NCBI GenBank assembly: GCA_013203315.1
Contig: JABMQJ010000026.1
Location: forward strand, 41,006-105,005
DNA length: 64,000 bases
Reading direction: 5' to 3'
Source: Candidatus Omnitrophota bacterium
Lineage (GTDB): Bacteria; Omnitrophota; Gorgyraeia; JABMRN01; RBG-13-46-9
Shown here: positions 13,292 through 64,000 of the stretch, piece after piece
How positions within the stretch are numbered: position 1 is the stretch's first letter
How the letters are laid out: the number at the start of each line of letters is the position of its first letter
Position numbers and translations under genes: made by a program
Notes under the pieces: model-generated
Told to the model about the DNA's origin: nothing
Database searches by the model: none
The model's input: the letters and a program-made list of their open reading frames with translations, nothing else

Positions 13292-13364
13292 TAAGGGGCT
13301 CCTTCTTTACTAATAAACTAAGAGCTTGATGCTTACTTATTCAAATAGAAGGAGCCTCTTTTAT
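13292..13364. repeat. 13-bp inverted repeat hairpin (AGGGGCTCCTTCT / AGAAGGAGCCTCT)
   Basis: Read directly from the sequence. There is one G-U/mismatch, and the loop is AT-rich. Confidence 0.7.
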
Positions 13365-13566
13365 CGGAATGAGAGGGTATTGGCGAAAGCGGCTTTTTTG
13401 CGGTCTTGTAGGAGATCCTTTCTTTCCATAATCGCCTTGGACCGTGTCCATCTAGTTATTGCTATATGGACACGGTCCAAGGCTTATATAGCTTACTACA
13501 ATTTGTTGAAGAAGAAAGAGCTCCGTCGTTAGCGCCAAGCCGCACTCGCCAATACCCTCTCATTCC
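13365..13566. repeat. 202-nt element bounded by a 20-bp perfect inverted repeat, with an internal 17-bp perfect hairpin
   Basis: GGAATGAGAGGGTATTGGCG (13365-13384) pairs with CGCCAATACCCTCTCATTCC (13547-13566). Inside, CCTTGGACCGTGTCCAT (13435-13451) pairs with ATGGACACGGTCCAAGG (13468-13484). Confidence 0.85.
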
Positions 13567-13629
13567 GTAAGGTTTGGGGAAAGCGAAAAAGGGGTTGAAT
13601 AATGCGGCTGGGTCATTATAATTGATAGT

Positions 13630-16156: not shown

Positions 16157-16579
16157 CTAAAATATCCCCAGGATCTTCCCGCGTATTATCTCGACATTTT
16201 TGAAGCGAAGCGCGTTAAAAGACGTGCCGTCAAACATGCCTTCAAATTGGATTGTTTTTCCTTTTCTGATGCTTTTGGCGGTTTCGAGGCCTATCGTAAG
16301 CACTAGTTCGTATGTCTCACCTTTGAAGCGTTTCGTGAGATACACTACAGCGTCATTTTTGGTACCGGCTACCTGCAAAACGTCTTTCACTCTTCCTTTT
16401 CCAACCGCAACTTGCCCGTTATATTGACGAACGGCGTCTCTTCTCTGAATAGAGGTCAGCTTTGTGTTGGTGAGGTCTTTTAATATCGTATTGACGTTTA
16501 AGGGTTTTGCGTAAGTATATATAGGAGAAAACGCGATAGAGAGCGCGAGAATTAATACAAGGATTTTTGTAATCTTCAT
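16157..16579 (-). CDS. hypothetical small secreted protein
   Basis: 140 aa with a clear signal peptide (MKITKILVLILALSIAFSPIYTYA). It is the only convincing minus-strand gene in the window. I recognise no family. Confidence 0.45.
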   Translation of the reverse strand: MKITKILVLILALSIAFSPIYTYAKPLNVNTILKDLTNTKLTSIQRRDAVRQYNGQVAVGKGRVKDVLQVAGTKNDAVVYLTKRFKGETYELVLTIGLETAKSIRKGKTIQFEGMFDGTSFNALRFKNVEIIRGKILGIF

Positions 16580-18971: not shown

Positions 18972-19562
18972 ATGAAACATTTCACGGACGAGCAATTGAT
19001 AAAGAAAGCGAAGCGTAAAGATAAGAGCGCTTTTAGCGAGGTCATTGATAGGTATAGCGATAAGATGCTCGGGTATCTCTATCGATACGTGGGTGACTAT
19101 CAGAAAGCCGAAGACCTGACGGTTGAAACATTTTTCAACGCGTATAAAAGGCTGAAAACCTACACGGAAATGGGCAAATTCAGTTCGTGGCTTTACATGA
19201 TAGCGACAAACTGTGCACGGAAAGAGTTACAAAAAAGGGCCCGCTCCAAGGAGGTTTCGCTTGAAAAGCCTTTGGGCGTAGGGGCGAAGGAAGATATAAA
19301 CTTAGGCGACTTGATAGCCGATGAAAAAACACGTCCCGATTACAACGCCAGGCAAACCGAACTTAAAGAGCTGATTTACAGCGCGATATCAAAGCTGGAT
19401 AAAAAGTATAAAGACGTTTTGCTATTTTGCGATGTCGAAGGTTTATCTTATGAAGAGGCAGCCAAGATTTTGAAGTGCAATCCGATAACAATCGGCACCA
19501 GAGTAAGAAGGGCACGAATCATGCTATACAATACACTGCGAAGATATGGTTATGAATTCTAA
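18972..19562 (+). CDS. ECF-type RNA polymerase sigma-70 family factor
   Basis: Region 2 is ...YRYVGDYQKAEDLTVETFFNAYKRL. Region 4 is a helix-turn-helix (DVLLFCDVEGLSYEEAAKILKCNPITIGTRVRRAR). GGAGG lies 8 nt upstream of ATG 18972. The ORF track's start at 18930 is less likely. Confidence 0.75.
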   Translation: MKHFTDEQLIKKAKRKDKSAFSEVIDRYSDKMLGYLYRYVGDYQKAEDLTVETFFNAYKRLKTYTEMGKFSSWLYMIATNCARKELQKRARSKEVSLEKPLGVGAKEDINLGDLIADEKTRPDYNARQTELKELIYSAISKLDKKYKDVLLFCDVEGLSYEEAAKILKCNPITIGTRVRRARIMLYNTLRRYGYEF

Positions 19563-19617: not shown

Positions 19618-19761
19618 GAAATAAAGTGAAATATTCCGGGATTTAGGGGATTATACATAATAGAAGCTTAAAAAAGCTTGGCAAAAATCTACGTGTTTTG
19701 AGTTTCGTATCTACGTCTTTTTTTATGTCCTGAAACTTAGGACATTTAAAAAGGGATAAAT

Positions 19762-19767
19762 AAGGAG
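19762..19767 (+). promoter_or_regulatory. Shine-Dalgarno (AAGGAG) of the giant ORF
   Basis: AAGGAG lies 6 nt upstream of GTG 19774 and 9 nt upstream of ATG 19777. There is an in-frame TAA at 19747-19749. Confidence 0.6.
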
Positions 19768-19773: not shown

Positions 19774-22700
19774 GTGATGAATGCTTGGCGTCCTTGGCAG
19801 TCTTGGCGAGTTTGGCAAGAACGCAAACTAAATAAACGCGAAAGTAATTATAATAATATAGATGCTAATGGTCTATCCGGAGGCGGTGTGTCTTCGGACG
19901 ATTCTATGGAAGGCATGGCAGTTTGGACAAAACGCCATGCCCTTTTAATTAAAACTTTAGCATGGGTTTTAGTTTTTGCTTTTATAGTTTATGACATAAC
20001 ATGGGCGCAGGGCGGCGAGCCGCTTAGCCTTGGCGCTAAGGCGAGCGCCGTAAAAGTAAACGGCAGAGTTCACGAAGAAGGCATCAGGATACCGCGCGAC
20101 GCCGGCTGGGCTCACGAATCGCATATCAACGGCAGCGACGAATTTATATTTAACATACAAGACCCGCACGCAAGCCTCGATGCACAGCACTCAATCGTAA
20201 GAATCCTCGAGTCACTAAGCTCAAACTACGACCTGAACCTAATCGCGTTAGAAGGCGCCGAAGGCCCGATAGACATATCGTTTTTACGGACCTTCCCGGA
20301 CGCTGAGATACGGAAGCACGCGGCCGAATATCTAATGCGCGAAGGCCGCATGTCAGCGGGTGAATTCTTCGCAATTGTATCCGAAAAACCGATAAAGCTC
20401 TACGGCATAGAAAATAGTCGCCTGTATCTCGAAAACGTGGAAGTATTTACGAAATTCATGGAATCGAGGCAAGGCTGCATAGACCACGTAAAAGGCGCTT
20501 TAAAAGCCCTAGAGAAATTCGCGCCAAAAGTTTACTCAAAAGACCTTCAAAAGTTATTGAAAGCGTCCAGGCTCCACGAGGAAGACAAGCTCGCATTCGT
20601 TAAGTACTGGGAAGTTATTACGAAAATCGCAGAAGAACGCAATGTTGAACTTGGGGATTTTGCGGGCCTTCCGCAACTACTGGCAGCAATTGAAATCGAG
20701 AAGGAAATCGATACAAAAGAGCTCAACAAGGAAAGAAAGCAGCTTCTTGACGAGCTTACAAATACGCTCACAAAGCCAGAGCTCGAAGACCTCGTAAAAA
20801 CATCTCTCGATTACAAAACCGGCAAAGTATCCCAAAGCCAGTTTCACAAGTACGTGATGCGCCTTGCGCTGGATAAAGGCCTTTTCCTTCAGCAATACTC
20901 CAACCTGGCAACGTTTAGCCGATACATCGCCGCTTACGAAGACATAAACTTCATGCAGCTTTTCCTCGAGATAGAGCAAGTTGAAGCCCGTCTCAGGGAG
21001 ATCTTATTCCTGAGCGATGAAGAAAGGGAGCTCTATAACTTCACAAAAGCAGTCCGCACCACAAAAAAGCTATTCGATATCGCAGTAGGCAATAGCGACT
21101 ACGAATTTATCCTGGAAAGCAAGAAATACTTCAATACAGATAACCTGCGCGAATTTATTAACAAAACCTACAAAAAATATGCCCTGATCAATGAAGATGA
21201 GTATGACGTAAATCGCGTATTCGAAAAACTAAGTGATGGCACCGAGCTTTATAACGTAGCCCAAAAGCGTAATAATGCCATGATTTCAAACACCCTAAGA
21301 GCCATGAGGATTAACAAGGAATACGCTGCCGCTCTCATAACCGGTGGTTTCCACTCAAAAGGCTTAGCAGAACTCATAAGAAAAAAAGAGCTTTCATACC
21401 TGATTGTAATGCCGAAATACGAAGGCGAAAACAAAAGGCCGTATATAGCCGTTCTTACACAGAAACGCCAACCTTACGAGGAACTTCTTGAAACCGGCGA
21501 ATACATGCTAGCAGTAAGGGCTTTCTGTTGGGACAGCGATCCGCGGAACATGGCAAGGGTCATAATGCCGATCGCAATATTGGCAGAACGCGGGCCTCTA
21601 TCATTTGAAGATCTTGTTACGCAACACTATGAACAATTTTTACCTGTTTTTGAATACTATCAGAAGGCAAGAGAACAGTGGGGTGGCGATGGCTTGAGAA
21701 CGCCGGTTGCGGAAAAAGACTTCTGCGCTATATACGGAGCAGAGGCGGATGCAAGCGGTAAACCGATTAGGGGCGAAGATGGCAAAATTCAGATAAAAAC
21801 AAAACCGGTTGTAGTTAGAACATCGGTAGCGAACACACCAGTTTTTGTCGTGCGCCTCAAAATAAACGGTGAGAGTTTTGTTGGCTGCTTCGCTGAAAAA
21901 GACGGAAATTTTGAGTACCTCAGCCTGGATAGCTCAATGGCTAAAAAAGCAATAAGGAGCGCGACACGAAAAACCAGGAGATTAGCTTCGGAAAGAAAAG
22001 AAATTACCGCCGCAGTAGCGCGAGACGTTTCAATTGACGGGGCTGAAGGCATATTAGAAGGGCTAGGATCGCTATATATAGAGGAAAGCGCACTTAATAC
22101 AGACCAAATAGCAGAGCGTGATAAGGCGCTTGAACTTATTGGAGCAGCAGCCAGTCGGCTTAATGGCCAAGAGGTAACCGTTAATAGGGCTGTTCGAGCC
22201 TTTGCAGGCGCAGCAGGTGCAGCAGGATATAGGATAGACCGAAAGAAGATCGGAGAAGACCTTCAGAATGTTATTGCAGCAGAAATAAAAAAGAAATTAA
22301 CACCGGAAGCTGCAGTCATACCGGATTTAGATAACAGGCTTAGCGAAAAGATAGAAAGATCCTTAAAGGAGCACCCCGAACAGAGAAATCCGGAATCCCT
22401 AGCAAGTTTAAAACAAAAGCTGCTGGAATTATACAAAAAGATTTCGTCTTCTAAAGATATATTAGGTAACCCGGAGAAACAGGAGAAACTAGCGGCATTA
22501 ATTGAATATACATTTGACAAGCTTTTAGATCAAGACGTAGATGATCTGAAGCTCCCGTATACTCCTCACGGCGCAAAACACTCGCTTGACGTTGCTAATT
22601 ATATGGAAAGCCTGGTAGAAAATACCCCCGGTCTTAAAGAAAGGCTGGAAGATCTCTACGGCGAGAATTATAAAGAAATAGTTTTTTTGCTTGGACTTCT

Positions 22701-28700: not shown

Positions 28701-31700
28701 AGCGGACGACGAAATAGAAAAAGCAAAGGCTTTATACGATAGACTTGTAAGATATTCCTTCCGGAATGAGCCGGTAAAGCCCGGGGACCTTAAGGCGCTA
28801 AAAAACAGGATATCCGAAGCCGAGACTCAGCGGAAGGAAAGCCGGATATATAAGAGAGTACAAAAGCTTGAAAAAAGGTTATCTAGAATCTCAATAACCA
28901 TAGAAAACATACGTAGAAACGCGAATAAATTTGAAAATGAAACGGACTATAAACGCGCGAAAGATATAATTGACGGCATATTCGCTTCTTTAAAGAAAGA
29001 ATTTTCCACCGGGGAATTGGAGTATAAAAAACAAGAAATAGATGCCTTAAAAGTGGAGTCCCGGCTCGCCGATAGTTTTGCCAGGGCATTTTTATTATTC
29101 AAGAAAGCAAAACAGGATCAAGCAAAATTCGATGCCCAAAGGGAAGAAGCAAAGCGTAAGTACGAGGCGATAAAGGAAAAAATAACCAACGCCCCGCGAC
29201 TTCAGGGACTTCCCCTTGCCCGGGGAATGGTGCACGTATTTCTGCATGGCAACGGCAGCCCCAGCCTCGCGCGATTTTTTAACAGAAACAAACCGAGGCA
29301 CGGAAGATTTGACGAAGGCGATGTTATTGTAAGTGATACACCGGTACCCGATCATCTTAAGGGTAAGAATGTGGAATGGTATCGTTATAAAATAAGTTTC
29401 CTCAGGAAAGAAAAAATTCCCCTTAAGTCCGGCGATCCCAAAGCGACCCATGTTTCGGTAGACGGAAAAGAGTACTCGGTATATGGCCCTGTTTACATGG
29501 TATTGGAAAAGATAGAAAAAGGCAAAAAAACTATAAGGGTAGCGAACGATACAATTGATTTGATGAAGCTTGTAGGCACAGGGTATACACTTAATGATGA
29601 AAATGGAAATCCGCTGTTCTCAGAAGCCGTAGTAAAACTCGCCAAGGACAACGACTACGATGCGGCTGCGATACAATGGAATATAGATTTATCGAGACAG
29701 AGACACGAAGGCATACGCCAGGCGAAAGAGAACTCAGAGGAGCATGTGGTAAGACTGATACTCGATTCCTGGCAGGCCCATGCGGAAAATCTTGAGATTG
29801 AAGAAGCGTGGGCGGAAATGCTTCGCACAATGTCCGAGGGCACAAAGGTTGAACTGGGCATATCAATAGGGGCCTATACAAAGTCGCTTCCATTTGTGTC
29901 GGTGTGGGCCGGTATTACCAGGATCATAGATAAAAGAAGAGATGCTTATGTCAGCCAGGGTTTCTGGAAATATTATGTTAAGATTCAAGAGGTTAAGAAT
30001 AGACAGGTTAAGCGGGTAAGCAGGGCCCTCGCGGACCTGACTGAACTGGGAGAAGTAAGGGCCGAATTGACACGCCTCAAAGGCGATGAAACGAATTATA
30101 AAAATCTCCTGAAGAAAGAAAGGGACAAAAAATCTCAAAGGGCAATAAGGGCCAGGCTGGCTTCTATCGGCGCAGAAATAGCAGGGCTCCAGGCCCGCGA
30201 CAGCGAGTTAAGCGAAGGCGTTCTTACTGAAATGGGCGAAAAGCTTAAGATAGATGAGATAGTAATCGATCCTAATAGACGTCTGAGGAAATGGCAGATT
30301 AACCGGATTCTTGCTCAATATGGGGTAGACGCGGGCACGGTTTATCCTGTTATGCGCGCATACTATCTCAAAAAATGGGCTGAGGCCAAACAAAAAGAAG
30401 CAGAAGCAGGAAAAACACCTGTATATACCTCTAAATCCATCGTAAGCGGTTCTGCCAGCGCCGCCGGTTTTTATGGCGGCATATTCGCGAGCATGGATGC
30501 CAAATTCGTAGATAAGGAACTGACCCCGGCAGTGGCTGATGTAATAAAACTACGGCAGGATGTAAATGCCAATTGGACGGCATACAATTCGCAGCAGAAA
30601 AAGAAAAAACTCGAAGTCATTTCTAAGGCGATAGACGAAGTTATAGATGCCTCGAATAGGAAAATCAAGAATCTGGCAGAGCGCAAAGCCGATGCGGAGA
30701 AGAAATACAAAAAAGGACTTTTAACCTTTGGACAATACGACGAGGCGCTTATAAAACTGAGGGAAGCAGAAAAGGAACACTCCGCTATAGTAACGCAGGG
30801 AAGCGCAATACAATACGATTTATGGATGCTTCATGACGGCCTTGACAGACAGCTGGGAGACGCCGTTAAGCTCAAGAGAGAAAAAGGCGCAATAACCGCA
30901 AGTAAGTTCATGGAAGATGTGCTCAAAACATCCCGCGAGATTGGCGCCGGCAAAATGGCAGATGTAGATGTGCTGGAACATACCCGGCGCTTGAAGGAAG
31001 GGAAGGATAAAGGCGTAGTTACAATTGAAGGCGTTGGTGGCTTTGTAAGCACCGGCTCGGACGGAAAAGGTATTTCCTTGGGCGCGGGGGCATCAACAAC
31101 CCTTAAAATCGATACCTCGCGGGAACAGAAATTAGATATATTGGCAGATACCCTTCTTATATCTGAATTAAGAAAAGAAGCAACGGAAGAAGACGCGGCC
31201 ATTAATGCCTTAAACGCACTCATTAGTTATAGGGGTATAAAGAAACAGACAGAATACGCGACCGCAGGGAAGAAGCATTACGAGGACTATAAAAAAGGCG
31301 CCGGCACACGAGAAGAAAAAGCCGAAGCCGAAGGATATCTGGCTGACGCGGTTCTTAATTTGAGAGGAGCCGAGCGATGGCTGACATCCGCAATGAGAGA
31401 GGCAATCACGTTAAGAGGCGGAGATTTTGCGAATGTTACGGATATAGATGACCCCACTGTATTATCCGGTATTATAGCCGAACTAAAGGTGAATCGTTAT
31501 AAAAGAGAACTTGAGATATTAGACCTGCAGAAGAAAATTATAGAGGCCATGGCCACAATAATAGCCAAAGGAGATTCGTTCTCCCTGGCTTTAGGCCTTG
31601 CCTACGCGGTTCAATCAGATGGTGGTTCCACGCTGCAGACGATCGGATTTAACATACAAATGGAATCGAATATATTCGGTCCGTTCTTACCCCTTATTAT

Positions 31701-34700
31701 CGGTAACCCGGAAAAAATAGATTTAGAACTAGCGGAAAAACTCTACCAGGAAAAGCGAGCCAAAATACAGGCCGAAGCTAAGGCGAGCGATGAAAAAATT
31801 GACAGCCTGGAAGTCCGGGTAACCATAGCTAGGCAAGCTGTCGATAGTGCTAAAAAGGCTCTTACAGAAGAAAAAGAGGCGAAGAAAAAAGCCCTTAGGC
31901 TAGCCGAACTCGAAAAAGCGAAAAGTAACTTACAAAGCGCGCAAACTGATCTCGAACTGGAAGAACTCCAAGCGCAGGCATATAAAGGTGTCCAGCGTGT
32001 GCCGAGAGAGGAAGGGATTTCAGTAAAAGAGGCGGAAAAATTAAGGCTAAGGTTGGCAGAAGCAAAGCGAAAGGCGGATGTCATAGATGAAGAAACTGGA
32101 AGGGTGGAGCCACAAGAGGCAAGGGAAAGAGAAGCTAGGGTCAGCGGTGCTGTTAATTTTAGAATTGTCCTCCTCGACCCAAGGAAGCCGGATACGTCTG
32201 AATATGATATCGAAGCCCTTAGAGAAGAATCCAGAGAAAAAGTCGAAGAAGGATTAAAAAATTATAAAACTCTTAAAGTTCAAGCCGCACGATATGGTGT
32301 AGAGCTGGCGTGGCTGAATTATCTTAGGGCAATAGCGGTAAAACAGTTAAATCAATTCAAAGGCGACCTTCCGGCGTTAAAGCCGTTTGACAATGAAGAG
32401 ACCAGTAGAATGAGGAGATTTACAAAATTTGTATCGGAATTAGATGCCAAAATTGCTAATATTGACGGAAAATTGGAAGAAACGGAAAAACAGATTCCCT
32501 ACGCGGGCGATGCGATTGGCGTGGTATACGTGGGCGACAAGATTGCCATAATAGTAGAAACCAAGCCCAACGGGAAAGAAGCAATAAGAGAGCTGAAGAA
32601 AATAAGTGAAAAAGATCGCGCCGCCGTATTGAAAGAGATAGAAGACCGGGACCCTGAACTGAGGCGGTTGAAAGCCCTTCGCGCACAAGCCCAAAAAATG
32701 CACGAGGCCACAGAGCCCCAACTGGGTTTTCTACCCGTTATTGATTTAAAGGGCATGTCTGGCATACCTATAACAGGCGCCCAGCTTGACCTTACATGGA
32801 CTCTTTTCGATTCCGGGCTTAACGAGGCCAATAGGTTACTGGCGTGGATAAAATTAGTAAGGCAGGACCTATTAATTAAAGTGGAAGAAAACAAAAAGTA
32901 CAACAGTCTTATTTTAGCCCTGGATCAACTTGAGAAGAAGACTTTGCGTTTAAAGAAGGCTGCAACGGCTAGAATGCGCTATCTCGGTTACATGGATGAG
33001 AACGGTAAGTTCGTTCCGGGTTTATTGACAGATGTCATAGAATCGTTGGACAATCAGAATACGAATTTGGATGAAGTTAGAAGAATTTTCCGAGAGTCGC
33101 AGGACGCGGTAAGCGAAAATGCCGAAGCCGCTTTTGAAAGTTTAGCCGCCGTAGAAAATTTTATCGTTTCTTTAGAAGTAATAGGTGTTGATCCCGCAAA
33201 ATATCTTAAAAAGCCAAAAAAATTATCAAAACCGGCCATAGAACCTGCGCAGCCGACGACTACTAGGCCGAGCGTTGCGCCGGCGGTGAGTGAATACAAA
33301 GTTCCCACCCAAAAGGTGCAAGATAAGGACATAAAAGACGAGATAGGGATTCTTATAGAGGCATCCGGCATGAGTGAACGAGCGGCCGTATTTGCGGTAA
33401 TATCTGCTAAACGATTTGTCGAGATGAACCGTAATATAGTTAACGTGCAGGGCCGTGAGCCATGGACGTCTAAATTACACTTTATAGGGATGTCAGAATA
33501 CGCCAGAAAAATAGCACGGAAAATGGCAGAAGATCCGGGCTTCAAAATTCCTGATCACCTCGGCTTCAGAAGCATCTATGATTTATCTACTACAATGGAG
33601 GAATCGGGACAAGTTAACGACCCAAAGACAGGCATTTATCCGGGCCTGTTCAACCTGCTTGGCCTGGCACATTATATGCAATGCTACGAAGATAGATTTG
33701 GTAAAGAGAAAGCCACGGCCCATTTTAATGAGGTTATAGCTAAAATTAAAGGTCCAAGGGATGAAGGATGGGAGATAGGGATACAGAAAAGATTAGCGGA
33801 ACTTGGCCTTGGAAAAACAGAAGAGGAGATGCATGCAGGCAGGGTTGCCCTTTCCGGTATAGCCGGTAGAGCTGTCGGCAGAGACCTTAACGTTCACACG
33901 AACCTTCATGACATGGGTATTGCGGGCAGGTTCTACAATTTCGGCCTTTTGCAACACTTAAATCCGGGGCAACTTGATGCTATGGTAGATGTTATGCGGG
34001 AACTACGGTCGTTCCTTAACAGTATATTCGATAATTATGGGGACATGACGAATGACGAATTATCAAAACAGCAGGGTTCCTACAGGCTGAGATTGAACAG
34101 TGAAAGATTGAAGACGCTTACTCCCGGAACGCCGGAATATAAACATGTTGAGATGCTCGTAGAAAGGGCAAGAAATGCGCTCATAGAAGAATTAGAACTC
34201 GACCGTCTCTTCAGCGCCGCCAGGGCAATATTAGAGCAGAGCGGCAAGGTGCTGAAGAATATGTCGAAGAAGGACATACAGGCAATTCTCAAGACCACGA
34301 TTAGAAGCAAGGCGTGGCGTGACTCCCTGCAAGATAATATAATTCCACGAATGAAAGGTGAAGACGGCAAGTTCCTAAGCGATTACGAAAATCCTTTATT
34401 TGACGCACTTAACTTTTCCGATAGTCGCGGAAAAGCCTACCCGGGCAAGGACGCAAAAGGAAAACGCGTAACTTATTTTGTGGAAAGGATGAAAATCGAT
34501 GGAAAAGGAAAATTACAGCCGGTTGTAAAAATTATCTACGCTGGCGAGCAAGAACCGCACAAAATCTATATAGGCCACTTTGACAAAGAAGCATGGTTAA
34601 AGGGAGACGCGTTGCCTATTCTGGACTTGGAAGGGAACAAGCCAACAAAGCCCGTCATAGAATTAGGTCCCGCTATAGAAGTAGAAAAAGGCATAGAGGC

Positions 34701-49700: not shown

Positions 49701-52700
49701 ACAGAGGGCACGCTGGATTATAATGCAGACATTTGCCGTTGTTCTGTCACACCCTGCCGCATTCTTTATGTTTTTCGGCCAGTATGTAAGTATGGGACTT
49801 GGGTGGATGTTACTCGGAAGCGCAGGGGCAATACTGCCCGGGCTGGCAGGAGCTGCTATAGGGTTTCTTGTCGGGGGATTTGTATTTTATTACTTAGGGC
49901 ACCTTGTTAATAACATTCTTATATGGACAGGCTACAAGAGGAACGCCCAGTGGCAAGTAGACCCCGTTAAGGCATTAGGATACTGGAGATTTCAGCATAT
50001 TTCGCATTTGGCCGCAGCGGCCCCCGCTGCCATCGCAACCGCTATAGCGCTTAGCATATCACTTCTTTACGGAATAGCCTTAGTAAATGTTCCCGGATTA
50101 GAGCTGTCAGGTTCGGGGGTAGGAGCATTTCTTGTTGAAGCCATAAGGTTCTTAGGGGTTTACATTCCTTTTATAAACGGATGGTTACCTTTTTGGTGGG
50201 TCGGCGCGATCGTATTTCTCACTCCTCAAGTTATACAGGTATTTATGGGCTGGATAGCAACCGCTCAGCATGGCGTGCAGGATGAAGAATCTACCACTGC
50301 AGCGGCGCGTATTTTTCTAACAGAACGCAACTATACTGGAAACAGTCCTAACCCGCTTATTGGAATACCAAGTTTGGATTTTGCTAACGTTGCCCCTGCA
50401 AGTGTGATTGGCACCAACCGCACGATAGCAGAACATTATAGTCGCTTTTCGGATGATGAATTTGTTCTGAATTGCTTGGAAATGTATATAGCAAATGCCG
50501 GAGACGCACTTCGGGTTGCAACGCCAGGTAATGTTAATCCTGATTCTTTTGGCTGGGTCGATCTTGATGCTAACTGGACTGAAAGGGGGAGGCATCTGTT
50601 AAACCTAGCAAATGCAGACGATATAGAAACTTACAGAAGGGCCCTAAGAGGGGCCATAAGCCACGCTAGGGGGCTCCAGGCAAAAGTAAGGGGAGACATA
50701 AGATTTTCATGGGGGGTCGGTATTTTTGGCGGTGCCTTAGCCTTATGTAGCGCCTTCTTGGTGAGTACAGGATTCTTTTATCCATTTTTTGGTGCTATAT
50801 CTATAACAGTCGGCTTGCTTTTAGTGCTTGGTACCGTTGCAACGCAGGTTCTAAGCTCGAGGCCCAGCAGAGGGCGCAGTTCCCCCGATGCCCCGCTCGG
50901 CACTAGGCCACGTCTGTCCTCAATAGGAAGACGCCCCTACCAGGGCTATCACTATTTTATAAGGCAGCCTCTTATGCTGGTCTATTTCATGAATCTTCTT
51001 CCTGCAATGGCCATAGGCCTTTTCATGTCAGGTTTTACGGGTGATAGATACCAAAATCAGTCTTTCTGGCCGAGAGGAAGGCAGGGGCTTGCTCCGCCTA
51101 GACTTGGTGAAAGAAGGACTTTTACAGGTTTTCGTAGGAGAGTACTCGATGTTATAAGAACATTTTTCCTTTCAGTTACATTGATAGTCGGTCCGATATT
51201 GATCATTATACAAAACCCTGCTGAGAAAATGCACCTGGATCCAATAGTGCTCACACAGTCCATTGTTATGGGTCTTGAAGCGGAATACCAGAGGCATATA
51301 CGCCGTGTGGGGCGGGCCCCATCTCCAAAAGAAATATACGAAATTCTTAACAGCGATAAATATAAGCATCTTCAGTACGGATGGATTCTCGGAAAAATTA
51401 CTGAGCTGGAAAAATATATTGCAGCAGGCGAAAAAGAACGCGCCGAGATATGCCTTATGTGGGTAATAGAAGGCATGAGAGTGCAGAATGACTCTATGAC
51501 TAAAGCAGACGAAACAATAGATTTGGGGGCAAAAGAAAATTTTGAGAAGCTTTCCCAGTGGTTCTTTGAATTTTGTTATCGCAACAATTGCATGGAACTT
51601 TATTACAAGGTATTGCCTATGACTCATAGGGCGCTACCCAACACAGATTGGAAGGTAGATGATTCAAATAAAGCAAAGGCAAAAGTGATTAACGACAAAA
51701 ACGGAGAAGCGCTTAAATTAAAATGTGAAATCGAGGGAAATAGAGGCGCCGGTGCAGGTTCAATTACTGTAAGAACAGAGCTACCGCAGGCCGTCGATAT
51801 GAGCGATCTGGAATATGTACTGAGCTATGGCGTAGAGACCGATGACGGCTCAAAGTGGACCCGAAACATTACGGTCAAACTTATCGATGGAAATGGTAAC
51901 GAATATTCCAATCCTCTTATTCGTGATCTTTACGCAAACAGCGCAAGTGTGAGGATAGCTCCGTTACTAAAAATGCAACGAGAACAGGCAAAGAATACCG
52001 GGACTGAAGGGCAGTTTTTTGATCCGACAAATGTCACAGGTATTGTGATTGAAATAGGCGGGAACCTCGCGAGAGATTTTTCAGGAACAATAGAATTGAA
52101 ACACTCAAGAATCCAGACAACCCCTTCGGCAGCTACTGTAAAGGATGCCAAGGATATAGATGTAAGGTTATTAATAGACATGATGATGAAAAACGCTTTA
52201 CCGCAAAGAGAACAGGTTATTCGCGCAGTAGATAGGCATGTTGCGGAGATGATGAGGAAAATTCTGATGCTTGAGCCATTTATTCCAACCGCAGTAGTGC
52301 AGCGACCTGTAGATGAGGCCGTGACGGCTACGCAACCACGAGTAGCCCCGGAGGTATTAAGCCCGAGAGCGAAAAAAGCGGCAGAGCGAAAAATAGCAAA
52401 AGGACAGGACATCGCAGCAGCAAGAAAAGCAAGAGCTTATAGCGCAAGAGCTAGAGCAAGAAGAAGGGGTATCGCCCTCACATTGATGATACCTATAATA
52501 GCTTTCGCAGGGGCACTTTTCTCATCAGCTCCTTATATTATGGAAATAACCGGCGTAGGTAGCATACCTCTAGCTATGCTTATCGGGCTAGGCTCTATGC
52601 TCGCTTTTGCTTCAATAGCTGCTGTAATTAGTGTATTATTTGTAGTAGCCGTTCTCACATATATGCATTTACTCCTATACAAGACCCTGTCGAAGGTTGA

Positions 52701-55700
52701 ACTGGCGGAAGAAACAGATCCTGCACTTTTGGCGCATATGAGTACAGTTATGGAGAAGGCTAAGCAGAACGCGGAAGAAGATGCAGCTCTTGTTGGTGTG
52801 GCTGCGATGATTGTTGATGCAGACGGGAACGAAGTAGTTATAGGGGCCCAGTCAGAGTCAGCACTTCCCTCAAAACGATTTGATCATGCTGAAATCAATA
52901 CACTTATCGCAAGCCGTAACGCCGGCACAGATTTATCCGATTGCACCTTACTTGTTTCCCTTGAACCATGCGACGGGTGCGCAAAGGCAATAATTAATAG
53001 CGGTATCAAAAAAGTAGTAATAGCGACATTGGAGCCGAGCCAATGGATATTAGGAGAGGGCGCTCGCGCACTATTATTGGCAGGCATAGAAGTAGTTATC
53101 GCATCTAAACCGGTTCAAAGAGACGCTTTGGAACATTTTACTGAAAGAATGCATGTATTAGGAAGAGAAGGAGAACTTGCTATTTCAGTTGAAGAAGCTA
53201 TGCAAGTTAATGATCAACCGATTTCACTATGGAAATCAACAGGTGTGGAAGACTTAAAAGCATTGGCGAGGCAGTCACTCGATAATCAGACAGTTGATAC
53301 CCACAACGATAGACATGATATATATGAGTTCGATAGACTAGTAGCGCACATTTTAAGAGACAGTTTGCAGCTTGATAGAGATAGATTACCGCAAATAGTT
53401 ACGATTAACGCAAATTCCTTTGATAACTCTCTGGGATTAGAAGAAGTTTACGCAGAAAGAAATGTAAAAAATCAAATACTATGGACAGAACAAACTTATG
53501 ACCCATCAAGGCCACATTCTATTATACTTGCCGGAACAGATGAAAATTGTCTTAATATCTTATCCCAAATCGAACGCCAAAATCTAGCACCCCTTGGGCA
53601 TGTATTTATCATGAGAGGTTTCAAACCCGGCCAGCCGGTTACGCTTACAAGCGCTGCCGACTTCAAAGCGCGACAACTTGCAGAGCAACCACCGCTTCGC
53701 GCACCGCCGCTACCGGCAATACCACACGTGCTGCTCGAGGCCCACCGTGGGCTGATAGAAGGCACGAGCGCCGAGGAAAATACGGCTCTTGCACTACAAC
53801 AAGCTGCAAACGACCCAAGAACAAATGCGATAGAGTTCGATGTGCAGCGCTCAAGAACCGGAGAACTCGTGATTGCTCACAGAGGCGGCGCTATCCAAGA
53901 TGCTGATGGCAACACCAGAAATATTGCTGATCTCTCGCCAGAAGAAATCCACGCTATTGACCCAAGCATTCCGATACTTAGAGACGCACTCGATACTATC
54001 CTGATTCCATCCGGAAAAATTTTATTTATAGACATGAAGGATTTCAACTTGGAAGGCGACCAAATAAACGATTTCGTGAACCAAGTAGTGGAATTAATTC
54101 GAGATCGTCAAATCACTAACCATGTAAATATAGGTTCCTTCAATATAGATATTTTACGAAGAATACGGGCAAGGCTCCCTGCGGTTAGAATAAATTACTT
54201 CGGTGATAGTGAAAGAGAGCACCCTACGCCGACTCCAAGCACAATGGATCAAGATATCCAAAACGCCCGCGAACTTGGCGCAGTATATTTTTCAATAGCA
54301 ACCGATGATTTTACAGGTGAAGGTGAGCTTGATGAAGCTATCGACAAGGTGCACGCAAGCGGCCTTTCCTCTGATCTGTATTTTAGAGAAGGGGTCCCTG
54401 CCGGGTTCGAGAACGAAATAGCCACTTTACAAGAAAGAGGGCTCGGTATTGTCAGCACAACTGATAGCGGTACCCTCGCAGAATTTACGCAGCCCACACT
54501 CCAAACAGAAGGAAATGTATTGAGTATACATCCTGATGCAATCCTTGGCATGTATCGTGGATTCTTCATAGGCCATGTCAGGAGATTTACAGGTATTGCC
54601 GGTATATTAGGCCGGGAGCTTAATCTTACTGAGGCACAACAGGCGCTGTTGGAGCAGGCCTCACGGCTTCATAATCTTGGTGAAGATGTAAGGGGCGCGT
54701 ACGAAGCAGAATTTTTTGATTTGTCCAGTCAAGTGCGTAACGAGTTTAAAGAAGATGGAAAGCCGGGAGTTTCCATAAGGAGGGCAGTCGATCTTCTTAT
54801 TTCGCGTGAGATGTCCCAGGATCCTGAAACTCAAGATCAGGAACTTGTATCGCTAGACGCAGATACCAGATATCGATTATTCAGAGCAGGCTTATTAAAG
54901 ATTTTGAATAAAGAAGAGTTAACCAATGTAGAAACGGAACTATCGCATTCATTGTGCAATGCCGCGGAGAATAGACTCAGAATGTTCGGTGAAAGGGGCA
55001 TAGATCTATCTCAGGAATCCCGGGATCTAGAAATTTTGCTAAGATACAACGACGACTACATAGGATTTGAAAGAGACCTACCGCAGTTTGAAAATGAGCT
55101 TACCATGCCGGTTGAAGACATGAGGCTTCTCATAGCCATAATGTTCCTTGCTGATGTCCTGGAGATGGGAAATAATCGGTATGTGCAGCGCGAACAAAGA
55201 GGCAGAGACATTGAAAGCTTGCCGGCAACAATTGATTTTATAGAGACACGTTTAATCGCTGACGAGCGCATACAGGAAAGCGCCCCTCTGGAGAGAGCAC
55301 TGGTTCGTTTAAGAGCGCTTATAGCAAGAGAACATCCGGGCTTGGTTAGATTGCTGCTTCAGGCAAGGGGGACTACCGAGCTCATGCCGGAAGACCGCCA
55401 ATACATACAGACACTACGCCAGGAAGCGCCGAAAAAATCTATTCTCGAAGTTTCCTCCGGCGAAATACTAAATCACTCACGTGGTTATATAAGGGATCAT
55501 GTAGGAAGGGTAGCCCGAATGGTGCTCCGCGTCGGACAGGCCATGAACTTGAGCGACCAGGAAATAAATATTTTAAGGTGTGCGGTGTATGGCCACGACG
55601 TAGGTATTTACACGGTACCGGAAGTCGATAAAAGTTTACGCGAGATGGGAGTAGATTTTGCAAGAGCTAAAACGATGGAGTATGAAGCCTTTATGCAGTA

Positions 55701-58700
55701 CGCGGCTGGTATAAAGAGCGCTACCGAAGAAGGCGCTGAATTAACAGAAGAGGAAAGAATCGTTCTCGATGACGTATGCAGGCACGGCGCAAACTTTGCT
55801 GACTTCCTGAACGAAAGGTATCAGTTACCAGCAGAAGTTGAAATATTAGTTAGGGGTCATTTTAATCATCAAACATTCTTGTCAGATATAGCAACGAGGC
55901 GCAATGAAATATCTATTCCGCTGGCCAGATTAGAACTTCTGTTATCGATAATTGTTACGGTGGATTCATTTGAAAGCGGAAATAATAAATTTAAACAAGC
56001 ACAATATAGAGGAAGCGAGCCCGAGTCATTTACCGATTCACTGGGAACTGTTGAGGTGCATGGCAAAGATGGGTTCGTAGTCAGAATGTGTAGGGATTGG
56101 GGCATAAAAGATACAAGGCCGCAAGATGTGCTAAGAAAATTAATAGTTAATAGGGACCCCGAAATACTAGGAGTCGTAAGAGAAGCGCGGGAAGCGGCGT
56201 CAATCGACGAAGCCCTTACGCCCGCTGATTCGGAATTTATCACAGCCAGCCGCCGAATTATGCCTCGTCTGCGCAGGGTAATTAGAGCAATAGTAGATTC
56301 TGTCCGTGACATATTTGAACGACTAAGAATAGAAATAGTCATGCGCCGGATCGATCGAATGATAGTAGACATAATTGCCAAAGGCGAGTTACCGGTAATA
56401 GTAGCAGACATTGATGGCACGATAACAGAATCAAACATGCCGGTTTCCGATGAAAGCTTAGACGTGATTATTGAACAGGCGCGACTTGGCGTGCCGTTTA
56501 TGATGTTAACCGGTATCAGCGCTGCAACTGCCCGCAAACAATTATTTGACCCACTCATAGGACGCCTTAATGAACGGATAGATGTCGATAAAAGCGTTTT
56601 GATGAATTGTATTTTTGCAAGCGACAACGGTACACAGATCTACATATATGATGAAGAACTGAATAATATAAGGTGTGTATTTAATATTAATATGAGGAAG
56701 TATTTACCAACCGGAAAATACAACCAAATCTTTAAAATTGTCAATTCATGTATTCGCCTGTTTGACATGCGTACGATGCTGCAGGAGAAAATGGGCTGGC
56801 AATTTAACGATGAGGAATGGGAGAAATTCAGAGCAACTTGTACTGTAAGGAGAAAGATAGAGGGGGGTGTCAGTCAAATAACATTGATGGTGCTAAGCAG
56901 GAATGCTACCCATGAACAAAAAGAAGAATTCCAAGCAAAAGGCGGCGAAGTGCTACGAAACGCATACGCAGATTATATAAATAGTGAATTTGAAAGACTT
57001 GGTATAGATGTTAGAGCAAAGGTTTCGGGGTTAAGCTCAATAGACATAAACCCTGCAGGAATAGATAAAGGCTGGGCCATAGAAACTATCTCAAAGCTCT
57101 GTAATTTAACCCTCGATAGCATAATATTTATAGGTGATGCATTTGGTCTAAGAGACAATGATACCCCTGCGCTTAGATTTGCCGAAAAGGGCATCAATGT
57201 CGGCGCGCGTGTTGCAAAATCAACACATAAAGGAAAAGAATTTCTGCAGCTACGGGGTACCGGGCCCAGAGGATTTAACAATGTAATAAGAAGCGTCATC
57301 GAATACGTTACAAGATTCCAAAGGACGTCAACTAGGCTACCCATTGCTTCAGCATTGATGGCAAGATTAGAAGCAGGACCTATCCAGATACAGGATGCAG
57401 GAGCAGTGATAGCGGATGGAGATCTAAGAGATATGCAGCATTTACTGGATACACATCTCCAGATCAGTTTTGGAGGGGCGATTGAAAATTACGAGCTTTT
57501 CACTCAATCTTTCCTGAATCAATGCGTAGCCGTTGGCCTAGCGGTTAATGATAAAGAGTATATGAAATACCTGGCAAACATTACTTACGATGCTGTAGGA
57601 AACACATCGGAAGGCCGTGACGAGGCGCATCTTCCCGTTGTTCCTGTGCATTTATCAGCAGGAATGGGGCAACTCGAGTTTTTGATTGCCTGTGAAAAAA
57701 GACCCGACCTGGATAGCTTTATAGTAACAACCATGGATAACAGTAACATGCCTATTGAAGGCCTGCTGACGCTCGAATTCAAAGTCGCAAATCAGGATAC
57801 GCCTATAAATGTTTTTGTTTCGCGTATTGATCCACATGCTAGGCGTCTGTCCGGCGAAAGGGATCCCCAGTTACTTGCTGCCTTGGAAGAATTAAAAGAA
57901 TTAGTAAGCGATAGAGTAGTGGACACAACTCCTGGCGTACAGGCCACGGGTAGGGTGTTAACGAACAAGTTGGCCAGGCTATTTGATAGCATATTAAGGT
58001 CCAGTTTCAAAACCGGAAGGGCTACTGAGATTCCGGTGGACGAAGGTCGTGGAATTAACTGGAGCGAGATAAGAGAAGGGTTCCAGTTTGTGACACACGA
58101 CGAACTTATGGAAAGCCTGGATGTCCGTGGCTTACCTGTTAATATACATCCGGGTCGTGGAGGGGAAACACTGGGCCATGGCGGCCTCCAGGCTCACATA
58201 GATAGCTATATATATGAGAATTTATCAGATGAAGAGCTTAAAACTCTAGCAAGACACGAATTAGCCCACCTTGACATTTTCAATGTAGAACGTATGTCCG
58301 AACAGGAAAGACAAGCGATTGAAGGCACAGATGCCTATAAAACTTGGGAAGCATGGGTCGAAGCAGGAAAGCGTGAAGGTCGAGCGCAAGAGACATTTGT
58401 TAATAACCTCCCGGGGTGCAATGCAGTAGCGGTAAGCAGAAAAATAGAGCAGCTAGCGCGCAAAAAGAGACGCCAAAACCAAAGAGTAGCAAGCCAAGTG
58501 CTGGTCGCAACACCCGAAACAGTCGAACCCGCAGTCGCAATGCCTCTGACACCGAGCGAATATGCACGCGTATGGTCTCCGGATATAGCCACACACGATG
58601 AGATAGTCGCAGCAATTAACCCAACTCTTGAGACAGCCATTACGGCATTAAGCGGTAATGATCTTGATCCAATAACAGAAGTATTAAGGAATATCGCTGC

Positions 58701-61700
58701 TACAACAAACCCGGATGAAATAAGCGCATTAGAAGAAGCAATAAGGCAATTATCACGAAGGTATTCAATTTGGTCAGCCTATCTCGGCCAAAGAATTGAC
58801 GAAGCAAGAGATAGCCTTTCCGGGAGCGAAAGAAACCGCGTTGACGCACTATTTACAAGAGCAAGAGAAAGCGTAAGAGCTGCTCAGAACGAACAGTGGG
58901 CAGTTATAAACGCCGGCGGCGTAGGAAGCCGATTCTGGCCTGTTGGATATGAGAAAAAACCCAAACAGCTTTTGTCGTTTGAACCGGGCGAACCTTCACT
59001 TCTTCAATCAGCAGTACTGCGTCAGGTGAATCCCGATAACCCCAACTGTATAAGTCCGGATCATGTCGTGATTGTTACAAATGCTAATATCGTAGACGAG
59101 GTTTGGGAGCAGGTAAAGGACATAAAAGTAAATGGTGTAGGAATTCCAAGGGAAAATATTCTAGGTGAACCTAAGGGGTTGAATACGGGGCCTGCACTAA
59201 GGCTAGGCGCGTTATTTATTGAACAAAAAACCGAGGGTGGACCCGATGCTATTATACGAGCCCTGTATGCTGACGCTGTTATTCCTGATCATGTATCTTT
59301 CAACAAGGTACTAGCCAATTCCGCTGATGTTGCAAAGTTTACTAATGTTTATGTTGAAGTAGGTGTAACGCCCGGAAGAGAACTAGATGGAAGTCTTGTA
59401 GTGAATCCAAAATTAGGACATCAGCAACTAGGAAAAGACATAGGCGGAGACGCTAATTATCTTCTTAAGAGAGTTGAGAAAGAGGTAAAGGAAACCCCCC
59501 AGGCAACGCATGATTATTACAAGGGTTTAGTTGAGAGTGGTGCTACATGGAATAGCGGTTGCGTAGTAGTCAGAGCAGGTGTTCTGACAGACATGATACA
59601 GACAATGCACCCCGAGGTAGAAGAGGTATTTCAGAAATACAAGGATCGATTAGGGGAACCAAGCGCCCTTGAAGAATTATATGATGAACTTGAAGAAAAG
59701 GGTGCAAAGTTGCCGTACGACACTTTCTTTTCAAAAGATGCCGTTGAAGGGGAATACCTAAGATTTGGTGTCGTAGTAACAACGGGCCTTGAGAAGGACA
59801 ACTGGGATGACGTAGGTAATCTCGCAGAATCTCGCAGAATGGCCAAAATTCCGTCGGAAGACAATTTCATTGCGCAAGGTAATGAAGAAAACATAACATT
59901 TGAAGAAGACACTGAAGGCAATACTGTTTATGCAACAGATGACGGAACAAAAGTCGTTTTACATAGCGGAGTAAAAGATTTAATAGTTGCTTACGAGAGA
60001 GGATGTAATTCACTACTTGTATTGCCAAGAGATGATTCTGCAAGAGCAGGCGAAGTCGTAAAAGAAATAACTAAGCAAAGTTCACACTATCACAGGTTGC
60101 TTCCCTATGCAACGGGCGAAAATCCGCCCGCGACCTGCGGTGAAGCCCACGAACAAGATGAACACGAAAATACTAAAACCGGCGATGCAATTTTTGTAAG
60201 CGATGACACCCATAATTGCCGTCTTACCACAAGCAAAGGACTTATCGCTGCGATTAATCTAACCGGATATCACATCGAATGGGATGCGGGGAAAAACGAA
60301 ATACATGTTTCTCTTGAGAAACCAGCCGAACCCGCAGTCGCCATGCCTCCGACACCGGGCGTATATGCAGTGTCTCCCGAAAGAGCAGAAATAAAGACAA
60401 CGTCTGTTACGGCTAAGCACGATGGTATTTTACCATGGCTGGAAGAGGGGATAGCAAGCGGAGCAATAGGTGAAAACAGAGACCTTATCGTTTTTGATTC
60501 TCACTTGGATGTTTTTGCCTTCTCATCGGGAAATGACGGCTGGATAGCTACTATCAGGAATACAAATATGAAAGTCGGAAAAATATATGCTGTTGTGCCT
60601 ACAATGTGGGGCACTGTTCATTCGCTTAACGCAACAGCTATGAATTTGGCAAAAAGCCTGAATGTGGAAATTGTATTTGGCCTCGAGCAATTACCACAAT
60701 TTGATGAACCGGTTACAGTTTCATTCGAAAACGACTTTGTAGACATAAATCTAATTCATGCAACTAAAAATGAAGTAGCCGGAAGACAACGTGAAGTTGC
60801 TCGCGCACTTTCCGGAAGAAATATTCAGATAGAAGGTTTCCATATATCAAATGAAACAGAGCCGGAATACGCAGACGGTGAAGATAAAGGCTTTATAGTG
60901 CGCAATATGTGGGCTACGCTTGCTGAGGAAGGTTATGACTTAGAGAAGAAGGACACATTCACAAGATTACGCGCCCGAAACCCGGCCAAAAGAAAACAAG
61001 CTGTAGCTGATTTAAAAGAAGACCACCCGCTTCTTACAGAAGAAATAGATGCGCACCTTGGAGCACTTCCTATATCGGGTAAGACAATATTAGACAGAGC
61101 AAAAGAAACAGGTAGGCCTGTCCTTGCATGTAACATTGATAACGGCGAACTATCATCGCTTCAGATACGTTCAATGATGCAGGCAGCGCTCGACATGAAC
61201 GCATTCATCATGTTTGAAGTAGGACCTGCTGCGCTACTCACTTATGCTGATGGCAAACCCCAGCTTCCTGAATACTGCGCGCGCGAGGCATACAAATTAT
61301 ACAAAGAAACAGGAAAATCCGTTACATACGCTGTTCACCTTGACCACAACCAGATAAACAGAAAGAAATATAATACAAGAGGCGAAAGAAGAAAAGCTGT
61401 CCGGGAAGCCGTTGACCGCGCAAAGAGTGCCCTTGCCGTAGGATTTACATCTTTTGCGACTGATACATCTACATTAACCGACATCGACAAAGACACGGTT
61501 AAAGATCAGTTGCTCCCTGTAGTTAATACGGCCACAAGGATTCTTTCAGCTATATATGATGAAGCAAAGGCTCTTGGAGTAGAAGTAGGTAACGAAGGTG
61601 AGGTCGGCGACATAGGCACTTCAATAAGCACAGTTGAAGACGCCGTGCATTATTATCAGGAACTTGTTAAGAAGTTAGGCGCTCTCTCAAAGAGAATGGG

Positions 61701-64000: not shown

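Follow-up and report, generated by a model that had tools for sequence, protein, structure and literature searches.

The giant gene and its reading frame

The window, i.e., the whole 64,000-nucleotide (nt) stretch analysed here, comes from an uncultivated Candidatus Omnitrophota bacterium (GenBank assembly GCA_013203315.1, contig JABMQJ010000026.1, positions 41,006 to 105,005 of the forward strand). Ordinary-sized genes fill its first 19.7 kb, and a giant coding sequence was found at 19777..64000 of the + strand, continuing approximately 5.6 kb past the window. The part in the window encodes amino acids (aa) 1-14,741 of 16,609 and was recognized by its stop-free frame, its uniform coding signal and the gene calls of the Joint Genome Institute (JGI). 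The protein starts with a conserved module, termed the head, and the enzyme domains and membrane segments behind it are termed the cargo. The frame is read here as one genuine gene of 16,609 codons, encoding a membrane-anchored multi-enzyme Omnitrophota protein of a known long-protein class, with a probability of roughly 0.85.

Direct translation of 19774-64000 in frame 1, from GTG 19774, gave 0 stops in 14,742 codons, and ATG 19777 to base 63999 makes 14,741 stop-free codons. The remaining + frames of the same stretch contained 1,203 and 1,055 stops, and the three - frames 760, 638, and 371. The stop probability per codon was 0.0606 from base composition, and the chance of such a run is approximately 1e-400. 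No + strand open reading frame (ORF) of at least 100 aa is listed past 19562, and the window sequence contains no N.

An in-frame TAA (19747-19749) lies upstream of the start. The Shine-Dalgarno (SD) motif AAGGAG, read in the sequence at 19762..19767 (+), is placed 9 nt before ATG 19777 and was the strongest SD of the 16 gene starts inspected. The alignment of the homologue P0001 begins at residue 1 of the protein from this ATG. SD motifs with ATG were absent in frame inside the giant gene, compared with 11 and 1 in the other two frames, and internal translation starts were ruled out on this ground.

The coding signal was uniform in all 14 consecutive 3-kb bins. GC content was 0.52-0.59 at codon position 1 (GC1), 0.34-0.43 at position 2 (GC2) and 0.36-0.47 at position 3 (GC3); GC2 overlapped GC3 in a few bins, and GC1 was above both. 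Purines occupied 63-71% of first codon positions across the bins. The relative synonymous codon usage of the giant gene correlated with that of 15 upstream genes (r = 0.84), so the gene is considered native to this genome. Its GC content was 44.9%, versus 43.1% in the 15 genes.

An earlier reading of this DNA from its letters and ORF list (the sequence-only reading) had described an uninterrupted frame of at least 44.2 kb, and the translation agrees with it. Its start signals (TAA 19747, AAGGAG, GTG 19774, and ATG 19777) were all correct on re-reading. It had named an overlooked in-frame stop as a possible flaw, and translation found zero. It had also taken the frame as real coding sequence and not a stop-free accident, which the codon-position bias and the chance of approximately 1e-400 support. 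It had seen enzyme signatures in the same frame, and enzyme domains do lie in it from aa 933 (HD) to aa 14077 (class II aldolase).

Full length and assembly integrity

The same locus was located by look-up of the upstream M48 peptidase gene in two long JGI metagenome contigs from different samples, i.e., Ga0335114_10155015 (102.5 kb) and Ga0335112_10395179 (74.7 kb). Shorter JGI and Logan contigs also carry it. In both long contigs, the giant gene was called as 16,609 aa, starting at the base equal to window position 19777. By the reported coordinates, the gene ends 9.9 kb and 6.5 kb inside the ends of the two contigs, so it is complete there. The computed end is at approximately 69,606 in window-equivalent numbering. 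Exact-pattern scans of genome and metagenome contigs, aimed at the last 5.6 kb, had no match, and a homologue search with the final 1,000 aa of the window part returned no identical fragment. The true length, which the sequence-only reading had left open while pointing downstream for the end, is thus settled at 16,609 aa in the calls on two contigs, with the end approximately 5.6 kb beyond the window.

No mismatches were found between the window and L002 and L003 over the overlap, and the window was identical to L001, i.e., Ga0335114_10155015, from approximately 13.2 kb onward. Nucleotide repeats of at least 40 nt comprised four small pairs only, and there were no inverted repeats. Tandem Repeats Finder detected tiny arrays and one 183-bp duplication. 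With nearly no nucleotide repeats, there is nothing to collapse in assembly.

An assembly or sequencing artefact, in which neighbouring genes are joined by a chimeric join, a collapsed repeat or uncorrected indels, is very improbable. Two observations could be taken in its favour, i.e., the split of homologous modules over two tandem genes, each with a head, in PLNN01000019.1, and a branching of the assemblies of this population at approximately 13.1-13.2 kb of the window. However, the known branch point is 6.6 kb upstream of the gene. Indel errors shorten ORFs and do not lengthen them, and the identical 16,609-aa call was made on two contigs. The frame is stop-free with a uniform coding bias and almost no repeats able to collapse, and the gene shows no second head, relic gene boundary or in-frame SD with ATG.

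The assembly branch was placed at window positions of approximately 13,100-13,180, in the intergenic region between a GT9 gene (end 13095) and PolX (start 13630). To the left of it, L001 carries unrelated genes, i.e., FtsK, RodZ, MiaB-like, PgsA, and FabG/ACP/FabF. The contig Ga0335113_11987536 (L089) ends at approximately 13,256 of the window. The branch is either two strain arrangements or one chimeric join, and the giant gene is untouched in both cases.

Two in-frame duplications were found within the gene at 34768-35133 and 36980-37204. These are a doubled 183-nt unit (83% identity) and a doubled 96-nt unit (92%) spaced by 129 nt. They are the sole signs of recent tandem expansion.

The conserved N-terminal head

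The head module was assigned to 19909..21921 (+, aa ~45-715) from homologues and a structure model made by AlphaFold2 (AF2). It is composed of a TIKI/TraB/ChaN/erythromycin-esterase-like core, a helical insert of approximately 300 aa and a C-terminal beta meander. Only the first ~700 aa of the protein have many detectable relatives. When one genome of each GTDB species was scanned by pattern and by tblastn, at least 570 relatives were found, and the best 80 of these loci, holding 83 head copies, were analysed in detail. Identity among relatives was 30-57%.

In 81 of 81 assessable copies, an in-frame upstream stop was found within -51 to +53 codons of the point where residue 1 aligns. The head is therefore always the extreme N-terminus. 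Head-bearing ORFs range from approximately 600 to more than 16,000 codons. The available sequence extended over 3,000 codons or more for 46 copies, and in 36 of these the ORF itself was at least that long. The closed ORFs (n = 15) have 598 to 3,589 codons.

The candidate catalytic residues of the head are D129-x-H131, E159, R498, and H526, and they were invariant in 24/24 homologues and 83/83 copies. The search patterns included D129/H131 and H526, but not E159 or R498; the invariance of the latter two is thus not an ascertainment effect. In RRSP, a member of the TIKI/TraB-PrgY/GumN/ChaN/erythromycin-esterase superfamily that is found in MARTX toxin (PDB 5w6l), the active site is E3900-x-H3902, E3930, R4001, and H4030 (PMC6254334). 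The spacing from His to Glu is +28 in both proteins, and that from Arg to His is +28 in the head versus +29 in RRSP. The head differs from the superfamily in that it has Asp for the first Glu and that the helical insertion of approximately 300 aa stands between Glu and Arg.

The AF2 model of the head, made with 24 homologues, was usable, with a predicted local distance difference test score (pLDDT) of 78.4 and a predicted template modelling score (pTM) of 0.70. It shows an alpha/beta core with a parallel beta-sheet, similar to solved TIKI/TraB/Ere members. No model of the Pfam families PF04187, PF01963, and PF05139 reached its cut-off for the head, and the head profile gave nothing meaningful against PDB sequences. 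The modelled fold resembles that of TIKI/TraB/erythromycin-esterase proteins, and the head is regarded as a candidate hydrolase.

TIKI, TraB, and ChaN are unmentioned in both giant-gene preprints (West-Roberts et al. 2023; Nielsen & Lui 2026). The head was not found in the searchable literature and seems to be undescribed.

A stand-alone head gene of 1,148 codons is present in the complete 1.43-Mb Omnitrophota genome CP070780.1 (L005/L019). It is directly downstream of genes for an outer membrane efflux protein (OEP), a membrane-fusion protein and two resistance-nodulation-division (RND) efflux proteins. Together with the OEP-like segment found in cis in the window protein, this neighbourhood may link the head family to TolC-type export, or it may be a coincidence.

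Domain anatomy behind the head

The anatomy was obtained by searching Pfam, NCBIfam and PDB sequences and by a Kyte-Doolittle hydropathy scan. All features below are on the + strand. In total, seven enzyme families were above the Pfam cut-off (HD, GH5-like, deaminase, GDPD, HAD, NTP_transferase, and aldolase), plus OEP. By motif inspection, the catalytic signatures were intact in all enzyme domains.

Near the N-terminus, a hydrophobic helix at 19942..19998 (aa 56-74) was recognized as a signal anchor or long signal peptide, with a Kyte-Doolittle mean of 2.12; the model places this helix at 55-77. The motif WAQGG follows it, and the consensus DIxWAQGG is kept in the 24 homologues. The next domain is an HD phosphohydrolase at 22558..23049 (aa 928-1091; PF01966 E 3.6e-7, above the curated cut-off), with the pattern H...HD...H...D.

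A TolC-like OEP segment was tentatively assigned to 30976..31314 (aa ~3734-3846), from PF02321 with E 8.9e-8 and 32.6 bits versus a cut-off of 22, in three stretches. For aa 3500-4500, which include this segment, word search and phmmer against 1.84 billion representatives found no homologues. This is a weak negative, because the protein libraries returned neither the 16,609-aa protein nor any match above 1,669 aa, and very long proteins may be missing from them.

Anciently duplicated, mostly helical modules occupy 33124..39711 (aa ~4450-6645), as recognized by self-BLAST (21-49% identity), alignment A3 and a re-scan with a hidden Markov model (HMM). Apart from such ancient internal duplications, the protein is essentially non-repetitive by self-BLAST. 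A module-end motif of approximately 150 aa occurs four times, i.e., at aa 2780-2928, 4864-5006, 5888-6057, and 6492-6645. With just four copies in the HMM re-scan, it was ruled out as a general linker. Modelling of the repeat unit by AF2, based on its four copies within the protein, gave a poor result (pLDDT 52). Pro-rich linker motifs recur at the ends of modules.

The GH5-like glycoside hydrolase was placed at 40066..40581 (aa 6764-6935), with PF00150 above the cut-off (E 1.2e-5, or 2.7e-6 as a 1000-aa piece), a further match to PF14488 and an NEP acid/base motif. It is followed by the first cluster of transmembrane (TM) helices, approximately 7-9 by hydropathy, at 45586..47844 (aa 8604-9356).

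The second TM cluster is joined to a GT2-like processive glycosyltransferase at 48658..51210 (aa ~9628-10478; TM 9981-10478). The assignment is based on PF13632 (E 1.9e-4, below the cut-off), motifs and hydropathy. The motifs E9936-D9937 and Q9976-R-A-R-W9980 are 40 aa apart and invariant in three orthologues. In glycosyltransferases of the BcsA/chitin/hyaluronan-synthase-type GT2 group, (T)ED and QxxRW are likewise approximately 40 aa apart and followed by TM helices. The predicted domain, with its QxxRW and following helices, resembles membrane-embedded processive synthases. The profile of this block had no match in PDB sequences, and phmmer against the same sequences found nothing for the first ~9,900 aa of the protein.

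Behind the third TM cluster, placed by hydropathy at 52468..52656 (aa 10898-10960), further enzyme domains follow. A cytidine/dCMP-type zinc deaminase lies at 52744..53025 (aa 10990-11083; PF00383 E 7e-17), with PDB sequence matches and the motifs HAE and PCxxC. A glycerophosphodiester phosphodiesterase (GDPD) was found at 53743..54366 (aa 11323-11530; PF03009 E 5e-8; HRG, ExD). The HAD domain at 56398..57204 (aa 12208-12476) is HAD-IIB Cof-type or phosphomannomutase (PMM)-like, with PF08282 at E 1e-10, PF03332 (PMM) weak, TIGR00099, and the motifs DxDGT and GDxxxD. A nucleotidyltransferase resembling mannose-1-phosphate guanylyltransferase (ManC), with a beta-helix, occupies 58900..60066 (aa 13042-13430; PF00483 E 1.9e-9; PF22640; PDB 2x5s E 1.9e-10; TIGR01479 E 2e-25; GGxGxRFWP). 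The class II ketose-bisphosphate aldolase at 61078..62007 (aa 13768-14077) was assigned by PF01116 (E 8e-24), PDB matches and the motifs HLDH, GTAHG, and LHGFSG, and Omnitrophota homologues of this domain reach 68% identity. The fourth TM cluster follows at 62650..62877 (aa 14292-14367; hydropathy), and a HEAT-repeat region starts at 63826..63996 (aa 14684-14740; PF13646 E 5.9e-4) and runs off the window. By hydropathy, the four clusters hold approximately 22-29 candidate TM helices.

The guanylyltransferase-like module is flanked by a 50-nt direct repeat (58517-58566 and 60320-60369, 88% identity), which encodes EPAVAMP(L/P)TP..YA. Insertion of the module may have left the two copies behind as linkers.

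Bacterial ORFs above 15 kb are usually explained as nonribosomal peptide synthetase (NRPS) or polyketide synthase (PKS) genes, or as repetitive adhesin or RTX-type surface protein genes. Such a conventional mega-protein is refuted by the domain scans, and we give it almost no weight. In Pfam and NCBIfam scans, no condensation, adenylation, ketosynthase, acyltransferase or carrier domains were detected. Immunoglobulin-like, cadherin, RTX, dockerin, and TSP3 repeats were also absent, dockerin and TSP3 from the Pfam scans of aa 1-14,741, and the protein is essentially non-repetitive.

Rearrangement of the cargo

Past the head, homology to other Omnitrophota ORFs was patchy and rearranged. Colinearity with aa 1381-3623 was found in L011. 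L031 has the GH5-like block directly behind its head, and in L037 and L061 the GT2 and TM block lies near the end of a gene that stands before a further head-bearing gene. One head-bearing gene of PLNN01000019.1 contains blocks matching aa 4707-7636 and 10438-11878, and the gene after it carries the block of aa 12206-12490 behind a head of its own. Approximately two tandem genes of that relative, fused, thus correspond to the window gene. Neither a second head nor a relic gene boundary was found in the window gene. The split in the relative is a real evolutionary fusion or fission, not a sign of assembly error. Tandem head genes, two to four per contig, occur on several contigs. The patchwork of shared blocks is direct evidence that these genes, with a fixed head and exchangeable cargo, change over time as modules are shuffled and as tandem genes fuse and split.

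Four heads are present on the 133-kb contig PLNN01000019.1 (L016, L015, L088), at approximately 19.1, 48.4, 80.2, and 90.0 kb, and L009 and L059 hold two head copies each. A stand-alone head gene in L008 stands between two long genes: the one 7 kb upstream encodes at least 5,111 aa with SecA_DEAD/SecA_PP_bind domains, and the one behind it bears a head and encodes at least 8,022 aa. In L006/L007 and L008, small PilZ genes come after head-bearing or very long genes, in the way that West-Roberts et al. (bioRxiv 10.1101/2023.11.21.568195) reported downstream of giant genes.

It is possible, but somewhat doubtful, that the head is a catalytically active TIKI/TraB-type hydrolase that defines a hitherto unrecognized superfamily of head plus exchangeable cargo across a large share of the long Omnitrophota proteins, from approximately 1,000 to more than 16,000 aa. 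Such a head would process a polyprotein or a host-surface substrate after export, and giant genes would lengthen or shorten as tandem head genes fuse or split. If so, the head would be a sequence handle for classifying long proteins and a small domain for testing function.

Comparison with known long proteins

Searches with aa 1-1000 and aa 13742-14741 returned homologues only from metagenome-assembled genomes (MAGs) of Omnitrophota, and the 80 related loci were likewise all from such MAGs, in line with the lineage guessed in the sequence-only reading. A few related MAGs are labelled 'Planctomycetia'.

Long genes have been reported in this phylum before. ORFs above 20 kb occur in most Omnitrophota classes (Seymour et al. 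2023, PMC10066038). West-Roberts et al. 2023 (bioRxiv 10.1101/2023.11.21.568195) reported proteins as long as 85,804 aa and defined 'large' as at least 10 kilo-amino acids (kaa), i.e., 10-30 kaa, and 'giant' as at least 30 kaa. In 18 samples, 3,650 proteins of at least 10 kaa were catalogued, the longest having 147,155 aa, and at least one protein of this size was present in 94% of the complete genomes from Omnitrophota (Nielsen & Lui 2026, bioRxiv 10.64898/2026.06.07.730766). Because thousands of such proteins are catalogued, the window protein is ordinary for its phylum. The earlier placement among the largest known prokaryotic proteins does not hold against these maxima, nor does the rarity implied by 'only a few lineages'. 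As a giant gene, it is one more well-supported example of a phenomenon catalogued in thousands.

The type protein of the Archaeovorins is a 39,678-aa protein of Velamenicoccus archaeovorus LiM (bioRxiv 10.1101/2023.11.21.568195). The window protein shares with this type the phylum, many TM helices and long unannotated stretches. It also shares scattered divergent domains, i.e., glycosyltransferase, glycoside hydrolase, HEAT, class II aldolase, and PMM-type, the last two being occasional in the Archaeovorin type. However, at 16,609 aa it is 'large' and not 'giant'. SecA_DEAD, C39/S8, methyltransferase, and NUDIX domains were absent from the 14,741 aa read, whereas SecA_DEAD or the SecA preprotein-binding domain is found in most, but not all, Archaeovorin-type or class 1 multi-enzyme proteins. 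The upstream genes also differ, being of lipopolysaccharide (LPS)-core and housekeeping type and not the type II secretion system (T2SS) or pilus genes typical of the published giants.

The 'multi-enzyme metabolic cluster', class 1 of Nielsen & Lui 2026, is also similar. Many Pfam families occur with none dominant, HD, HAD, and sugar-metabolism modules are present, approximately 2% of residues are in TM helices, and the bodies are sequence-unique with little homology between genomes. The 22-29 candidate helices agree with the published mean of 22 TM helices at or above 10 kaa (Nielsen & Lui 2026, bioRxiv 10.64898/2026.06.07.730766). In contrast, the window protein is at the short end of the range, and the catalogue describes no shared N-terminal module and has no TIKI, TraB or OEP in its text. 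By phylum, size class, TM density and domain mix, the window protein fits the Archaeovorin-type or class 1 multi-enzyme class.

MARTX and polymorphic toxins offer an analogy only. They, too, are multi-enzyme polypeptides of very large size in which one terminal module stays constant while the modules downstream of it vary and are shuffled, and the MARTX effector RRSP shares the fold family of the head. However, the window protein has no RTX repeats, no cysteine-protease autoprocessing domain and no recognizable toxin domains, and its cargo is metabolic enzymes and membrane segments.

The new leads, i.e., the TIKI/TraB-like head and the head-plus-cargo modularity, are modest. Most sequence of these long proteins is unannotated and cannot be aligned between genomes, and the head offers a handle that is also small enough to express and assay.

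Proposed architecture and function

The function, which the sequence-only reading called essentially unknown for genes of this scale, is inferred here. Tentatively, and at somewhat less than even odds, the protein may be an envelope-spanning scaffold that joins the supply of nucleoside diphosphate (NDP)-hexose, glycan polymerisation or export, and glycan hydrolysis. The N-terminal helix would direct the export of a long extracytoplasmic arm (aa ~75-8600), which would carry the TIKI/TraB-like hydrolase head, the TolC-like segment and the GH5-like glycosidase. The N-terminus is basic and the conserved WAQGG stands behind the helix, which speaks for either an N-in orientation or cleavage of a signal peptide. 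The polytopic middle would hold the processive GT2-type synthase.

The C-terminal arm (aa ~11,000-14,300) would carry the enzymes that depend on metabolites of the cytoplasm. Nucleotides and sugar phosphates are the substrates of its PMM-like, ManC-like, aldolase, and deaminase domains, which points to the cytoplasmic side. The PMM-like HAD and the ManC-like domain would make an NDP-hexose, e.g., guanosine diphosphate (GDP)-mannose, beside the aldolase, deaminase, and GDPD. The head might cleave the polyprotein or an external ester or peptide substrate, and the scaffold would probably act in the contact with host or prey cells that has been proposed for the phylum.

A polyprotein would explain the size differently. 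In this case, a single round of translation would give a product that the TIKI-like head or a different protease then divides into independent enzymes and membrane proteins, and the size would be only gene packaging. The head keeps the His/Glu/Arg set of TIKI-family endopeptidases, the same modules are separate genes in relatives, Pro-rich linker motifs stand at module ends, and West-Roberts et al. raised the same idea for C39 and S8 domains. However, the TIKI superfamily includes esterases and non-enzymes such as ChaN, and an exported head could not reach the cytoplasmic segments. We consider it rather unlikely.

Alternatively, the protein might chiefly be a weapon or coat outside the cell, used in predation or parasitism as was suggested for Velamenicoccus archaeovorus. 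Most domains would then lie outside, where they would bind and digest the wall of a prey archaeon or bacterium and pre-process the sugars set free. This hypothesis has been published, and attached cells contain more of the 39,678-aa LiM protein. The GH5-like domain, the GDPD domain and the N-terminal export signal would suit it. In contrast, nucleotides or sugar phosphates, which are scarce outside cells, are required by the guanylyltransferase, aldolase, deaminase, and HAD domains, and the QxxRW of the GT2-like domain speaks for synthesis. Pfam scans of aa 1-14,741 detected neither adhesin, dockerin or lectin domains nor peptidoglycan-lytic ones, and no T2SS or pilus locus lies upstream. A weapon or coat is likewise considered rather unlikely, and the scaffold is the preferred proposal.

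Several points weigh against the reading of one genuine, membrane-anchored multi-enzyme gene of the known class, or against the architecture built on it. The base-for-base comparison with other assemblies covers the first 6.4 kb of the gene, and the remainder rests on the identical called length. The compared assemblies are from one sample series and not fully independent. The part read covers aa 1-14,741 and the upstream side, and the giant gene is known here as sequence. Approximately 60% of the protein has no assignable domain.

The OEP segment is a single Pfam match within a helix-rich region, PF13632 reached 21.8 bits versus a cut-off of 27 and matched the C-terminal half of its profile only, and the HEAT match is under the Pfam cut-off. 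For the head, the commonest weak match was PF04187 (ChaN, Tiki superfamily), which was sub-threshold in 5/24 members (best E 0.0026) and absent from the window's own copy. Foldseek of the head against PDB was not significant, with EreC ranked first at E 0.16. SecA_DEAD domains were not found in aa 1-14,741 at E up to 1, C39 domains were also absent from this part, and no T2SS or type IV pilus locus was found in approximately 30 kb upstream. An HD domain in an exported arm would be unusual. The topology comes from a crude hydropathy scan in which the helix number per cluster is uncertain, so the side of each arm is uncertain.

Upstream genes

The 19.7 kb upstream of the giant gene encode KdtA, LpxK, an LpxL-like acyltransferase, several GT9/GT4 heptosyltransferase-type enzymes, PolX, an M48 peptidase, UvrD, and an extracytoplasmic function (ECF) sigma factor. 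Farther upstream, amino-acid biosynthesis genes, TopA, DprA, and XerC/D-like genes were found, and the approximately 30 kb upstream in all also include DNA-repair genes and one A24 prepilin peptidase. This gene content indicates a chromosomal core neighbourhood of a diderm bacterium. The whole window held no tRNA genes and no Rfam matches.

The ECF-type sigma factor gene is placed at 18972..19562 (+), 214 nt upstream of the giant gene, with Pfam Sigma70_r2 and r4_2. Its ORF has 210 aa in the window, and JGI calls a 196-aa product. It was considered as a conserved partner and ruled out, being absent next to the head genes in all 80 related loci.

Between the M48 peptidase and UvrD, a 140-aa ORF on the - strand (16157-16579) was called in 4/4 public contigs and had no Pfam match. 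Domain fusions were also found in ordinary-sized genes, i.e., an LpxL-type acyltransferase fused to an ELM1-like domain (4176-6119, 647 aa) and a GT4 and GT9 fusion gene (6104-8209, 701 aa). Neighbouring genes here overlap by up to 50 nt.

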